This document shows positions 47 through 7,779 of a stretch of DNA of 28,935 bases, piece after piece. The stretch's first letter is position 1, and the number at the start of each line of letters is the position of its first letter. The translations under genes and the position numbers were made by a program. Origin of the DNA: Promethearchaeota archaeon (GTDB lineage: Archaea > Asgardarchaeota > Lokiarchaeia > Sigyniarchaeales > SOKP01); NCBI GenBank assembly GCA_016930515.1, contig JAFGGO010000112.1, positions 1 to 28,935 on the forward strand. Direction: 5' to 3'. The notes under the pieces were generated by a model, which worked only from the letters and a program-made list of their open reading frames with translations, made no database searches and was not told the origin of the DNA.

Positions 47-1747
47 ATGGTAGAAAATTTACAGTTCATCTATAAAGAAGAATATTGGTTTATCAGTGCC
101 TTTTTAAAAACTTCAAATCGTTCAGACGATAAAAAAACATCCGTAATAAACGGTCTTAAAAAAAGCAAGGAAATAGAAGAACTTTTAAGAAAAAAGCTTA
201 ATACTTTAAAGGATAATGACATTTTCAGAAAAGACTTAAAAGACGAGATTCTTGAATTGGCCCGAAACATTTCCTTGAGTTGTTCTTGGAAAGCTTACAT
301 GACGAACTTTCCTTATAACGACGAGAATAGCGAACGCAGTTACGATACATTAGGTTTCTTTCAATTTGATGTGGAATATTACAAGAACGACCCGAATAAA
401 AAACAATCGATACGTCCAATACTCATCCAACAGATCCCCTACATAGTTTTAAACGAGCTAAAATCCTTTGCAAATAGGGAAGAAAACAAGGGAATATTAT
501 TTGACACCGAGAGCCCAATTTATGTGTTTGTCACTTCTGATAAAACCACCCCCGCTGAAATTAGCTGGAATCCTCAGAACATTGATAAATACAAGAAAGT
601 CATATCATACTGGACGGAAGTTTATTCCGGTCAATGGGAGGATTATTCAGTAACACTTTACGATAAAAGAACAGAAAATAACTTGTCAAACCGACTTTCA
701 GAGCTCCATTTCATTAGAAGGAACTCAGGTTTCATTTACATGGCAGAACAGAATTACATTGATTTTTTCGAATCTTATATGAAGAAATGGGTTTTAGATC
801 CTACACCAAAAATAAGAGCCGTGTTGTTTGCTTTTAGAACGATTAACGAATCCTTAGACCTGCTGTTCTTAAAAACAAATTCGGATGTTTTCATGAATTT
901 AGAAACGATAGAGAAAAAGATCAAGAACCTACGCCTTTTACGTGGTTTAATCCAAACACAGTTAAGCGCCATATATAACGAATTAGATTACAATCGAAGA
1001 CAACATTACACGAGTGTTTTAAATCACCTCATTCAGGAATTTGGCTTGAAAAACATTGAAACGCGTGTGAATGAGAAATTTACAACGATATACGACGCGA
1101 TGGAAGAGTTATACCTCAAGAAAAACGAGGAAAACCAGAAGAGGACCGAAAAAGGATTAAACCTATTGAATTTATTGTTTGGAGCGGGTGTTTTAGCAGA
1201 TTTAGTAGGAGTTCTCATGATCGCTCTAACATGGGGTGAAGGAAATCCGGGAGCAATAGCTTTAAACGCAATAGTAGGTGTATTTATCATTGCAATTCTC
1301 GTAGCAACAATCGCGGTTAATGTACGCTTGAAGTTTAAAATCAAAGAGGAAAACATCGGGAAAACAGTGGATGCCGTAATAGAAGATGGTAAGGGTAATG
1401 TAGTTTTAATTAAAAGAAAATATCCACCATTCAAGGATTATCTAGCACTTCCAGGAGGATTTATCGAAAAGGGAGAAACACCACAGAAGGCTCTATTAAG
1501 AGAAGTGAAAGAAGAAACGAACTTAACGGTAAGAATCGTTGAGAAAATCGGCCTTTACGACGATGAAGGTAGAGATCCCCGTGGTATTGTTCATTCTACA
1601 GCCTTTAAGTGCAAAATCGTAGGAGAAGTATCCGACATGAAAAGCGGAGACGATTCACAACAAGTAGGCTTATATTCAATAAACCAATTAAAGAACAAGA
1701 ACCTTGCGTTCGATCACAAAAAAATTCTCAAAGACGCTGGTCTTTAA
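47..1747 (+). CDS. Membrane protein: CorA/DUF155-like N-terminal domain, 2 TM helices, C-terminal Nudix (ADP-ribose pyrophosphatase-type) domain
   Basis: 566 aa. Nudix box GGFIEKGETPQKALLREVKEETNL plus RDPRG, GDD and LAFDH motifs. Two hydrophobic helices (~aa 371-427) follow a long amphipathic stalk helix. The N-terminal family assignment is tentative. Confidence 0.75.
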   Translation: MVENLQFIYKEEYWFISAFLKTSNRSDDKKTSVINGLKKSKEIEELLRKKLNTLKDNDIFRKDLKDEILELARNISLSCSWKAYMTNFPYNDENSERSYDTLGFFQFDVEYYKNDPNKKQSIRPILIQQIPYIVLNELKSFANREENKGILFDTESPIYVFVTSDKTTPAEISWNPQNIDKYKKVISYWTEVYSGQWEDYSVTLYDKRTENNLSNRLSELHFIRRNSGFIYMAEQNYIDFFESYMKKWVLDPTPKIRAVLFAFRTINESLDLLFLKTNSDVFMNLETIEKKIKNLRLLRGLIQTQLSAIYNELDYNRRQHYTSVLNHLIQEFGLKNIETRVNEKFTTIYDAMEELYLKKNEENQKRTEKGLNLLNLLFGAGVLADLVGVLMIALTWGEGNPGAIALNAIVGVFIIAILVATIAVNVRLKFKIKEENIGKTVDAVIEDGKGNVVLIKRKYPPFKDYLALPGGFIEKGETPQKALLREVKEETNLTVRIVEKIGLYDDEGRDPRGIVHSTAFKCKIVGEVSDMKSGDDSQQVGLYSINQLKNKNLAFDHKKILKDAGL

Positions 1748-1859: not shown

Positions 1860-2396
1860 ATGAGTTTAACGCCGTTAATAATGGAAAGTCCCGTTAATGG
1901 GAAAAAACCTCAAATACACGAGTCCGTGTTTATTGCTCCAACAGCCACGATTATTGGAGACGTTGTGATCGGAAAAGGATCAAACATATGGTTTGGCGCC
2001 GTTCTAAGGGGAGATTGGTGCAAGATTGTAATTGGAAAAAACACGAGCATCCAGGAAAATGTCACAGTTCACTCTGAGAGAAATACGACGGTTATTATCG
2101 GTTCGGATTGCATTGTTGGGCATCACGCCATGGTTCACGGACCGTGTGTCGTCGAAGACGGATGCCTCGTGGGAATTGGCTCAAATCTCTTACATAATTC
2201 CTTGCTTGGTAAGGGTTCGCTTCTTGCGGCAGGTGCTGTCCTCGTCAACAAGCAAATTCCTCCTAGAAGTTTGGTAGTTGGAGTGCCCGCCGAAATTAAA
2301 AAAAAATTCCCTGACGAAAGCCCTTTGAAAGGAGAAGAAACTTCGGGAGAATATGTTGAAAATGGCATATTTTTCAAGAAATATTTTGAAAAATAA
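1860..2396 (+). CDS. Gamma-carbonic anhydrase family (hexapeptide-repeat, YrdA/PaaY-like) protein
   Basis: IHESVFIAPTATIIGDVVIG, IWFGAVLRGD, IQENVTVH and GHHAMVHG metal-binding His pattern. Confidence 0.92.
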   Translation: MSLTPLIMESPVNGKKPQIHESVFIAPTATIIGDVVIGKGSNIWFGAVLRGDWCKIVIGKNTSIQENVTVHSERNTTVIIGSDCIVGHHAMVHGPCVVEDGCLVGIGSNLLHNSLLGKGSLLAAGAVLVNKQIPPRSLVVGVPAEIKKKFPDESPLKGEETSGEYVENGIFFKKYFEK

Positions 2397-2592: not shown

Positions 2593-3546
2593 ATGCTGCA
2601 ATTTTACGACAATTACATTAATATTCTAATTCTTTTACCCTTATGTCTTGTATTTTTAATCGTTTTTTCTTATTTCATTCTTAATAAACAGTTTAAATCT
2701 GTAGAATTCAGAGTTGCAATAATATTAAGCGTATTACCAATAATAATTGCAGAACTTGCTTTCCTTCAGATTGGTGTATTTCAAAATTCGATCCTTAGCG
2801 CTTTTATCTTGTATTGTTTAGGGATAATTATTTCATTATTTGATATTTATTATGCTACTAAGATTATACGAAACCAGAGACAAGAGCTCGATGCAAGATC
2901 AGCTAGATTGAAGGATGTGATGAATAAGGCAACAGATAATTCGGTTAATGTTTCAAACATTGCTACCGAACTTGCGGCAAGTTCGAGCGAGGTAAACGCA
3001 GCTTCAGAGGAAATATCGTCCACAACCCAACTTGCTTCAATGAATGTTGCACAACAATCAGCTTCATTGCTTGAAATTAAAAATATAATGAAACAGATTT
3101 TTGATTTTTCGAATGAGGTGATAAAGTCCTCGAAACAAATTAACCAAATTATGGGTTTAATCGTTTCTATCTCGGAGCAAACCAACCTGCTTGCGCTTAA
3201 CGCAAGTATAGAAGCAGGAAGGGCCGGTGAACAAGGGAGGGGATTTGCGGTTGTTGCTGACGAGGTGAGAAAACTTGCAGAAGAATCAAAAAACGCCGTA
3301 GGAAAAACGGGATCTCAAATTGAAACAATTCTCGCTCAACTTGCCAATACAGGGGATTTAATCAACATAATAACTGAAAGAATAGAAAATGTTTCTAATT
3401 TATCCGAAGAGAGCGCACAAGCAATGGAAGGTATCTCGGCGTCGGCAGAAGAACAAACCGCTTCAATGCAAGAGATCTCAGCCACGGCTAGCAGGCTTGG
3501 ATCACTCGCAGAAGATCTGAAAAGCACGCTCACAAAATTTAAGTGA
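2593..3546 (+). CDS. Methyl-accepting chemotaxis (MCP) signalling-domain membrane protein
   Basis: Three N-terminal TM segments; hairpin-tip motif [37 protein letters not shown]. Confidence 0.92.
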
Positions 3547-5680: not shown

Positions 5681-6415
5681 TTAACTGCAGATGCAATCAT
5701 CAGCCTTCTCTATTTCCACCACATTGAAAGAGAGATCCAAGAGATTAACCATCAACAGCTTGTTTTCAAGATTGGGGAGACCTAAAGCCGTCTTGATGAC
5801 CTCAAGAGCTTCTAGTGTACCAAGGATCCCTGGCGTCACCCCTATTACGGGTAAGGGATCTGCAGAAATGTTTGGCGTTTCTGTTGAAGGCGAAAAAACG
5901 CACTGATAGCAAGCACTCTTTTTTGGGTTTACTGTTATGATTTGACCGTAAAAGTCCTTTATGCCCGCAATCACGCTTTTGATATTGTGTTCTACAGAAA
6001 CCTGATTAACCAAAAACTTCGTGTTGAGGTTATCGCTACAATCGACTATGAAATCTTGATCCTTGAGATACTTTTGTATCGAATTCTCATCCACATATTC
6101 CTTGTGAGCATTGATCTTTACTGTTGAATTGAGACCTAATAAAGTGTCTCTTGCAATGTCTACCTTGGGCTTGCCCACTTGTCGTTCGCTATAGAGCACT
6201 TGTCTTTGGAGGTTCGATAAAGACACGACATCGTTATCAACGATCGTAAGCTCTTTAATTCCTGCAGCCACCAAATACATTGCAAAAGGTGATCCAAGAC
6301 CTCCAGCTCCAATCTGCAGTACTTTAACTTCCGATAAGCGTTCTTGACCGCTCTCTCCGATCGAGGGCGATAAGATTTGTCGTGAATATCGTATTTTCTG
6401 GTCTTTTGTCAACAC
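5681..6415 (-). CDS. HesA/MoeB/ThiF family (E1-like) adenylyltransferase
   Basis: RYSRQI, IGAGGLGS, DNDVVSLSNLQRQ, DCSDN, CYQC; GTG start. Confidence 0.93.
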   Translation of the reverse strand: MLTKDQKIRYSRQILSPSIGESGQERLSEVKVLQIGAGGLGSPFAMYLVAAGIKELTIVDNDVVSLSNLQRQVLYSERQVGKPKVDIARDTLLGLNSTVKINAHKEYVDENSIQKYLKDQDFIVDCSDNLNTKFLVNQVSVEHNIKSVIAGIKDFYGQIITVNPKKSACYQCVFSPSTETPNISADPLPVIGVTPGILGTLEALEVIKTALGLPNLENKLLMVNLLDLSFNVVEIEKADDCICS

Positions 6416-6434
6416 TTTTTTTTTCCTTTTTTGT

Positions 6435-6803
6435 TTATTCCTCTCTTATTTTTAGGATGAATTCCTCCAATTCTATGAGAATAAGTCCGAGGTTTATATC
6501 GAGATGCAATAGACTCGCAACAATCAATCTTTCGTTAATGCCTAATATAACTATTTGGTAATTCTCAAATTCCACCGTGATATTTTTAATTTCAGGGTTT
6601 GTAAAGGATTCAACGGCCGTTTCGATCCCGTTGTATAATGTTGCTGCCATCGCTCCAAACTTGCGGTCGTCGAGGTCTAAAGGTAAATTAGAAGTAACTA
6701 AAATTCCGTTCCGATTTACAATAACGGTTCCGATAATGTCGCTTCCAAATTGTTCCAACCGGGCGAGTTCCTCGGTTATTTTTTCGATGTTTTCAGCAAT
6801 CAT
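6435..6803 (-). CDS. Roadblock/LC7 domain protein
   Basis: 122 aa; GTVIVNRNGILVTSNL, FGAMAATL and NLGLILIEL pattern. Confidence 0.85.
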   Translation of the reverse strand: MIAENIEKITEELARLEQFGSDIIGTVIVNRNGILVTSNLPLDLDDRKFGAMAATLYNGIETAVESFTNPEIKNITVEFENYQIVILGINERLIVASLLHLDINLGLILIELEEFILKIREE

Positions 6804-6894: not shown

Positions 6895-7779
6895 TTATTC
6901 TTTTTTTATTACTTCTTCAACAAAACGATCGATTAAGTGGCGTGCAATGCTTATTTTTGAAGGAATTTTTGGTAATTCTTCGATTTTGAACCACCTTGCA
7001 GTTGTTATTTCCCGACCGTCCGGAGTGATATCTCCACTATCAAAGTCGGCTGTAAAACCAATCATCAACGAGTTAGGAAACGGCCAAGGTTGACTTGCCA
7101 CATATTTTATATTCTTTATTTCAATTCCAACCTCTTCATTTACTTCTCTTTTGACCGCATCTTCTAAATTTTCTCCAGGATTGACGAAACCTGCGATGAC
7201 ACTATAGAGATCTTTAGGAAATTTGGCGTTGTGAGCAAGTAAAATTTTATCTCCCTTTTTCACGGAAACGATTATCGAAGGAGACACACGAGGATAATCT
7301 AAATATCCACAAGAAGGACATTTCTTTGCATATTGAAAAGAACTCAAGAACACTTCTGAGCCACATCGTCCACAGTAACCTGATTTTTGATACCAATCAA
7401 CGAGTTCAAACGCAATCGAGGCGATTTGCCACATGTTTTTATCTACTAAGAGCGCTAATTCACGCAAGTCAACGAAAGAAAATCGAACATTCTCTTCAAA
7501 ATTCAAATCGTTCATAAATTCTTTCGAGTCAAGAACACCGGTAAAACAAGATTCTCCTTTTAACATTCCAAACGAGATGTAAAAATTCGTGAAAGACTTA
7601 ATATCTGGACCTTCTGAACTATTATTTTTTATAAATAGTTCAGAGTTAAAATATGGAATGGATGTACTAGAACTTTCGGTTTTAATCAGTAATTTATTTT
7701 GATAAAATAAAAATCCCCAATTTTTTTGTTCTAAAGAATTTTTTCGTAATATTTCTGAAAATGTAAATTGATTTAGCAT
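6895..7779 (-). CDS. nudC: NAD(H) pyrophosphatase / NAD-cap decapping Nudix hydrolase
   Basis: Zn ribbon CGRCG...CPSCG, YPRVSP, Nudix box AGFVNPGENLEDAVKREVNEEVGI, diagnostic SQPWPFPNS. Confidence 0.95.
   Translation of the reverse strand: MLNQFTFSEILRKNSLEQKNWGFLFYQNKLLIKTESSSTSIPYFNSELFIKNNSSEGPDIKSFTNFYISFGMLKGESCFTGVLDSKEFMNDLNFEENVRFSFVDLRELALLVDKNMWQIASIAFELVDWYQKSGYCGRCGSEVFLSSFQYAKKCPSCGYLDYPRVSPSIIVSVKKGDKILLAHNAKFPKDLYSVIAGFVNPGENLEDAVKREVNEEVGIEIKNIKYVASQPWPFPNSLMIGFTADFDSGDITPDGREITTARWFKIEELPKIPSKISIARHLIDRFVEEVIKKE

Follow-up and report, generated by a model that had tools for sequence, protein, structure and literature searches.

Gene layout, topology and the Nudix domain

The 28,935-bp stretch of DNA analysed here (the window) is a whole contig from a metagenome-assembled genome (MAG) of an Asgard archaeon (~4 Mb, 94% complete), and at its 5' end is located a gene (47..1747, forward strand) encoding a 566-amino acid (aa) fusion protein, P0001, in which a soluble region and a two-pass membrane hairpin precede a Nudix domain. 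The gene was delimited by the open reading frame (ORF) list, its translation and 534 homologues; it starts with an ATG and its coordinates include the stop codon. The contig edge is only 46 nt upstream of the ORF, and the N-terminus nonetheless agrees with the N-termini of the homologues. P0001 belongs to an undescribed family of two-pass membrane proteins that is centred on Asgard archaea and occurs in fused, split and Nudix-less forms. Our leading interpretation, to which we assign a probability of roughly 40%, is that it forms an oligomer with a CorA-like membrane module to which a Nudix domain of the adenosine diphosphate ribose (ADP-ribose) type is coupled.

Two hydrophobic segments were identified in the fusion protein by Kyte-Doolittle analysis with a window of 19, at aa 370-394 (TM1) and aa 405-426 (TM2), and values elsewhere did not exceed 1.02. 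The part ahead of TM1 consists of an N-terminal alpha/beta domain (aa 1-233; 47..745), defined from a structural model of aa 1-435 and aligned with the CorA N-domain in the whole-length matches described below, and of a helical bundle with stalk (aa 234-369; 746..1153), defined from model secondary structure and conservation and carrying a conserved NRRxH motif at 316-320. Within the alpha/beta domain is the most conserved soluble core of the protein (aa 174-231; 566..739). TM1 (1154..1228) features L374-N375, G379 and a mid-membrane D385, and was delimited by hydropathy and conservation, as was the less conserved TM2 (1259..1324). Between them lies a short, variable outer loop with the sequence TWGEGNPGAI (aa 395-404; 1229..1258), while TM2 is followed by a basic, variable linker of ~10 aa and then by the Nudix domain (aa 439-563; 1361..1735), which was placed by Pfam, structural matches and alignments. 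An earlier reading made from the DNA letters without database searches (the sequence-only reading) had described a soluble region leading through a long helix to a two-pass hairpin and a Nudix domain, and hydropathy, Pfam and the model agree with this order; the stalk that it quoted starts at aa 320. Five lysine and arginine residues were counted ahead of TM1, none in the loop and four behind TM2, which by the positive-inside rule places both soluble parts in the cytoplasm as that reading had proposed. It had also remarked on the absence of the canonical GMN motif of CorA, and the loop sequence bears this out.

The NUDIX family was the sole Pfam match in P0001 (aa 439-563, E 2.8e-20, above the family cut-off). 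The Nudix box, GFIEKGETPQKALLREVKEETNL (aa 471-493), keeps the G, E, RE and EE positions of the consensus GX5EX7REUXEEXGU and departs from it only by an N in place of the penultimate G. The RDPR (509-512), GDD (534-536) and LAFDH (553-557) motifs that had been taken as signs of an intact domain were all located, and RDPR, GDD and (L/V)FDH are common to this domain and to 2yyh, 3i9x and 2fml. Its best solved relative was Aquifex 2yyh (E 2.6e-23; Z 20.6, root mean square deviation (rmsd) 2.9 over 131 residues), and structural matches were also obtained with NrtR 3gz8 (Z 20.2) and NadM 2qjo (Z 18.8); 2fml, 2qjo and 3gz8 were among the PDB matches. The best NCBIfam matches were NadM-Nudix models (E 7e-13) and an ADPR-responsive NtrR. 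Judged by these comparisons, the domain is closest, among characterised proteins, to the ADP-ribose pyrophosphatase domain of NadM and to the regulator NrtR, which binds ADP-ribose, and NCBIfam, PDB and structure matches concur in upholding the earlier assignment of the domain to the ADP-ribose type.

The clade of NadM and NrtR has been named 'ADP-ribose (2)' (PMC5389931). Their Nudix domains have been described as ADP-ribose binders that are active if the box is intact and that are clustered with genes of nicotinamide adenine dinucleotide (NAD) metabolism, and in NrtR the domain has become a pure ligand sensor with a degenerate box (PMC2330246). P0001 and its relatives resemble these proteins in the Nudix domain itself, in the rare occurrence of degenerate boxes and in a gene that is often beside one for NAD biosynthesis (here nadA; for nrtR see PMC2330246), and differ in having a membrane module in place of the adenylyltransferase or DNA-binding domain. 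The G, E, RE and EE positions of the box were kept in 192 of the 197 fused members. The divergent fused archaeal proteins P0130 and P0136 have degenerate boxes in which catalytic Glu is lost, which suggests, by analogy with NrtR, that the domain may have turned into a pure binding module in some lineages.

Fused, split and Nudix-less forms in Asgard archaea

A search with aa 1-435 alone recovered the 534 relatives, and the best 120 of these were nearly all 557-568 aa in length, included a NUDIX domain and came from Promethearchaeota, Loki-, Thor- and Hermodarchaeota MAGs. Loci were then surveyed with one genome per species, which gave 105 loci with a relative; neighbour and fusion counts out of 80 refer to the best 80 of the 105. 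The Nudix domain was in frame in 79 of these 80 species-level loci and the contig of the 80th ends before the Nudix region. Assembly artefact as a source of the fusion, a concern raised by the sequence-only reading, is ruled out by these in-frame copies in relatives. With the exception of a few bins that carry odd labels, all 80 loci were labelled as Asgard. When 1.84 billion cluster representatives were searched exhaustively with a profile, only 104 clusters were returned, and the family consists of ~100 clusters at 50% identity, nearly all of them Asgard. It was present in 26 of 151 sampled Asgard genomes including 17 of the 25 sampled genomes from the taxonomic family of the window, where it occurs mostly once per genome. 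Literature searches on the Nudix fusion, on DUF155 with CorA and on MJ0711/MJ1566 gave nothing relevant.

A tree of 47 representatives was divided into one Nudix-fused clade (540-615 aa) and two Nudix-less clades (~400-480 aa), one of which includes a Heimdallarchaeota protein. The Nudix-less relatives retain the entire module including the TM hairpin. A split form was found at locus L121, where 27 bp separate the gene for a Nudix-less module (P0169, 5001-6200) from a downstream Nudix gene (6227-6637) that is read in a different frame. The product of this stand-alone gene is of the same subtype as the fused domain, with which it shares 45% identity, and contains RDPRG, GDD and LAFDHKKIL. No stand-alone Nudix neighbour was present at the two related loci L118 and L122. 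The adjacency of a same-subtype Nudix gene in the split form points to a functional link between module and Nudix domain beyond the fusion itself.

An MMETSP transcript yielded a eukaryotic homologue (P0135/P0228, L117:175-3045) in which all three parts of the architecture are present. Its contig of 7.8 kb also carries cytochrome P450 and Pho88 genes; the protein is extended by long low-complexity stretches, and its Nudix box is degenerate (RSIMED). In the tree of 47 representatives it was nested among the fused archaeal proteins and had P0129 as its sister, with a Shimodaira-Hasegawa-like approximate likelihood ratio test (SH-aLRT) value of 98. This placement suggests transfer from an Asgard archaeon into one protist lineage as the simplest reading of the homologue.

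Conservation was compared among the 47 diverse sequences and among 76 fused homologues. The soluble core carries a signature of W174, YSGQWxDY (193-200), NLSNRxSExH (212-221) and N226-S227 that is common to Nudix-fused and Nudix-less relatives, and several of its columns were near-invariant in the diverse set (W174 and E219 in 47/47, R216 and S227 in 46/47). The NRRxH motif was also invariant or nearly so across all three clades. In TM1, N375 was kept in 42 and G379 in 38 of the 47 sequences, and position 385 was D in 26, E in 7, T in 8 and S in 3, so that an acidic residue was found there in 33. The mean frequency of the major residue in the fused homologues was 0.78 in both the soluble core and TM1, 0.70 in the Nudix domain, 0.60 in TM2, 0.49 in the loop and 0.47 in the linker. 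TM1 thus equals the soluble core in conservation and surpasses the Nudix domain, which argues against a passive anchor and fits an assembly centred on TM1. The pore of CorA is lined by TM1 while TM2 faces the lipid, and the higher conservation of TM1 relative to TM2 seen here matches that division of labour. As judged from the alignments, the soluble core (aa 174-231) is pocket-like and independent of the presence of the Nudix domain.

The main rival to a CorA-like assembly bears on the same pattern. It states that P0001 is a membrane-tethered housekeeping pyrophosphatase for ADP-ribose or nucleoside diphosphate (NDP) sugars without a pore, in which the module would be a sensor and scaffold that keeps the enzyme at the cytoplasmic face of the membrane and may regulate it, and the conservation of TM1 would reflect nothing more than specific helix packing, and we regard this as quite possible. 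The soluble core being the best conserved part, the catalytic box being intact in nearly all members and the variability of an outer loop without GMN are all in its favour. A simple tether would however be unusual in having a membrane helix conserved like the soluble core and furnished with an Asn and a mid-membrane acidic residue, and the hairpin is kept by the Nudix-less relatives, which argues for a role of the module in the membrane that does not depend on the Nudix domain. Even if there is no pore, the proteins constitute a conserved, unannotated family that is small and well delimited and that has a sharply conserved, pocket-like soluble core and one eukaryotic member among archaeal ones.

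Fold of the membrane module and its proposed working

The model of aa 1-435 was built on an alignment (A3) of the 47 diverse sequences and had a predicted local distance difference test score (pLDDT) of 91.7 and a predicted template modelling score (pTM) of 0.83. It consists of a mixed alpha/beta domain, several long helices and a 63-residue helix (334-396) that turns into TM1 unbroken, followed by TM2. A first full-length model based on 17 close homologues had a mean pLDDT of 68 and its matches in structure searches were mostly Nudix. The best PDB matches of the module by Foldseek were T. maritima CorA chains (E ~0.01, probability ~0.9, 320-340 columns), and re-alignment with TmCorA gave Z 7-7.8 over 235-250 residues, spanning aa 8-429. 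Whole-length matches with lower scores than TmCorA were obtained for MjCorA, CjCorA, EcCorA, ZntB and CmaX (overall Z 6-7.8), and no solved structure other than CorA, ZntB and CmaX was aligned over the full length of the module. In an unbiased structure search of the model, coiled-coil and spectrin-like matches were on top (Z ~8) and CorA, at rank 41, was the sole whole-length match. This likeness to ion channels along the whole length is a further point against a poreless hydrolase.

The module appears to resemble CorA, ZntB and CmaX (PF01544, MIT superfamily) in its cytoplasmic alpha/beta N-domain, its long helices, a stalk continuous with TM1, the location of TM2 at its C-terminal end, the basic stretch behind TM2 and the better conservation of TM1 than of TM2. 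It differs from CorA in the variable loop without GMN, in a soluble core that is far more conserved, in the attached C-terminal enzyme domain and in the lack of detectable sequence or profile similarity. No match was found for aa 1-435 in Pfam, NCBIfam or PADLOC, and none of the 47 diverse members had a Pfam family over the module, with no match to PF01544 at E <= 1. The module appears CorA-like in layout and shape and is not a member of the CorA family. It is accordingly very improbable that P0001 is an ordinary CorA-family Mg2+/Co2+ transporter with an incidental Nudix tail. CorA chains do head the Foldseek matches and provide the only whole-length structural ones, but such a transporter would be at odds with the missing GMN motif, with the absence of PF01544 from all 47 members and with the result of an hhalign comparison of A3 with 19 Asgard CorA sequences (probability 8%, 15 columns). 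The same genome furthermore encodes a canonical CorA with YGMNF (G000:C85:39821-40681, locus L085; E 1.3e-70), which means that the standard Mg2+ channel of the cell is a protein other than this fusion.

Among predicted structures the nearest named cluster was 'DUF155'/MJ0711_N, with a template modelling score of 0.58 by query and 0.68 by target over 306 residues (rmsd 4.0). MJ0711_N, MJ1566_N and 'CorA-like' clusters were also nearest by language-model features, with a score of 0.90 for the top named cluster. The MJ0711_N (PF27233)/MJ1566_N and 'DUF155' (Rmd1/YagE-like) groups, which are uncharacterised families, are the nearest named ones to the module in predicted structure and language-model features, and differ in that the Nudix fusion is absent from their cluster summaries and in that Pfam DUF155 (PF02582) had no match in P0001 or the 47 relatives. 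A DUF155 search of 61 Asgard genomes gave no matches, but the control genomes were without a match too. The sequence-only reading had called the soluble region and hairpin CorA/DUF155-like; the CorA arrangement stands as the best structural match, weakly so at E ~0.01 and Z 7-7.8, while at the sequence level neither the CorA (PF01544) nor the DUF155 (PF02582) model gave a match.

Bacteroidota proteins of 516-938 aa in the ESM Atlas were predicted to have a similar N-terminal module (template modelling score ~0.6 by query) followed by an alpha-amylase or GNAT domain, and no tie to the module was found for them at the sequence level. These predicted structures may point to a more general design of 'module plus cargo enzyme', and the occurrence of such modules ahead of unrelated enzymes would suit a hydrolase tethered to the membrane.

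In the CorA-like assembly that we favour, subunits of P0001 would assemble into a homo-oligomer, their conserved TM1 helices being packed round an axis and N375 and D385 providing polar positions within the membrane. The tethered Nudix domains would bind and hydrolyse ADP-ribose or a close NAD-derived nucleotide, and this binding and hydrolysis would be linked to the state in which the membrane module is found, as in an ion pathway that is regulated by a nucleotide and turns its own signal off. The conserved core of the N-domain (aa 174-231) may be a second sensing or regulatory site; the core exists independently of the Nudix domain, because it is kept in Nudix-less relatives. A dimer prediction with two copies of aa 1-435 and A3 had a score of 0.00; it gives no verdict and counts neither way on self-association.

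Several observations weigh against this assembly. The outer loop, which corresponds to the selectivity filter of CorA, lacks GMN and at 0.49 is among the least conserved parts of the protein, and the strongest conservation is located in the soluble domain rather than the membrane, which would fit a sensor or a membrane-tethered enzyme too. The structural scores between module and CorA are within the range of a common helical arrangement, and at the sequence level Pfam gave no link to CorA and the hhalign comparison with Asgard CorA sequences, as given above, no significant match. The predicted Bacteroidota proteins with alpha-amylase or GNAT suggest a general enzyme scaffold rather than a ligand-gated channel. 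The putative specificity for ADP-ribose is drawn from homology, and the function of the best solved relative, 2yyh, was undetermined (PMC5389931). Finally, the adjacency of nadA described below is confined to one clade and accompanied by general synteny (ThiF, Roadblock), and may therefore reflect descent rather than function.

A stronger form of the CorA-like assembly, which we consider rather unlikely, is a prokaryotic channel-enzyme in which an oligomeric CorA-like pathway would be gated by ADP-ribose or a related NAD-derived nucleotide bound at its tethered, active Nudix domain, which would then end the signal by hydrolysis, as an independent invention of the principle known from TRPM2. 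TRPM2 is a eukaryotic cation channel in which a cytoplasmic Nudix domain of the ADP-ribose type (NUDT9-homology domain) likewise stands at the C-terminus, and some of its orthologues keep hydrolase activity while others have lost it. It differs in having six TM segments rather than two, an unrelated membrane fold and a Nudix domain from the NUDT9 rather than the NadM/NrtR lineage, and NUDT9 was absent among the listed matches of the Nudix domain of P0001. For P0001 as a putative channel the comparison is thus one of analogy only, as the sequence-only reading had put it, given two TM segments and a Nudix domain nearest to NadM and NrtR. If the module conducts ions under control of the Nudix domain, the idea of a channel-enzyme gated by ADP-ribose would have its first counterpart among prokaryotes. 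The turnover of NAD would then be connected with ion flux across the membrane and with membrane physiology in those archaea that are most closely related to eukaryotes, and one protist lineage has a homologue.

Gene neighbourhood

Neighbours of the fusion gene in the window encode a gamma-carbonic-anhydrase-family protein, an MCP-domain protein, SCP2, a URO-D-like protein, ThiF, Roadblock and a NudC-like NADH pyrophosphatase. The gamma-carbonic-anhydrase-family gene (1860..2396, forward strand) is located directly downstream and was assigned by the Hexapep family and by relatives of gamma carbonic anhydrase in the PDB; its match to the NCBIfam gamma carbonic anhydrase model (E 8e-42) is below the cut-off of that model. 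Of 73 loci, 40 have such a gene immediately after the fusion gene in the same orientation, at distances of -4 to 124 bp, and it is a possible operon partner of the fusion gene. The quinolinate synthase gene nadA was located head-to-head with the fusion gene at a distance of 89-205 bp in 33 of the 80 loci, all from one clade (L011-L056 and L076), and an example at L018:4954-5895 (reverse strand) was confirmed. This neighbour counts in favour of the assembly coupled to an ADP-ribose-type Nudix domain, with the reservation on descent given above. In the lineage of the window nadA is not adjacent: it is ~5.8 kb upstream in the nearest relative and on another contig in the genome of the window itself.

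This housekeeping context is in keeping with a membrane-tethered pyrophosphatase and bears on a further alternative, in which P0001 would be an anti-virus effector of NAD+- or ADP-ribose-linked defence, with a membrane-disrupting CorA-like part and a Nudix domain for breakdown or sensing of the signal. Divergent CorA proteins serve as effectors in type III CRISPR systems, and the Nudix domain matched the PADLOC candidate PDC-S07 (E 4e-14), but this match is limited to the generic Nudix domain. The annotated neighbours in positions 1-10.6 kb of the window and at L001, L003 and L018 included no cas, cyclase, TIR, SIR2 or other defence genes, and thus neither the type III cas genes nor the signal-making or signal-degrading partners that would be expected beside a CRISPR effector of this kind. 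The synteny with nadA, the gamma-carbonic-anhydrase-family gene, ThiF and Roadblock is conserved across genera, and the presence of the family in 17 of 25 genomes of its own taxonomic family, mostly as a single copy, is typical of vertical housekeeping inheritance and not of a defence island. A role as defence effector is hence highly improbable. The suggestion of NAD+-linked immunity made by the sequence-only reading was not sustained, as the neighbours are housekeeping genes in synteny with none annotated for defence, and a defence-island context was rejected on the annotated neighbours at these four loci.

The gene for the NudC-like NADH pyrophosphatase, with a rudimentary Nudix domain, a zinc ribbon and a NUDIX domain, is located 5 kb away from the fusion gene (6895-7779, reverse strand) and adjoins ThiF and Roadblock, and this trio is syntenic in the close relative L001. 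The membrane protein with an MCP signalling domain (2593-3546, forward strand) is encoded between the gamma-carbonic-anhydrase-family gene and ThiF, a position at which L001 lacks it and has a GrpB gene.

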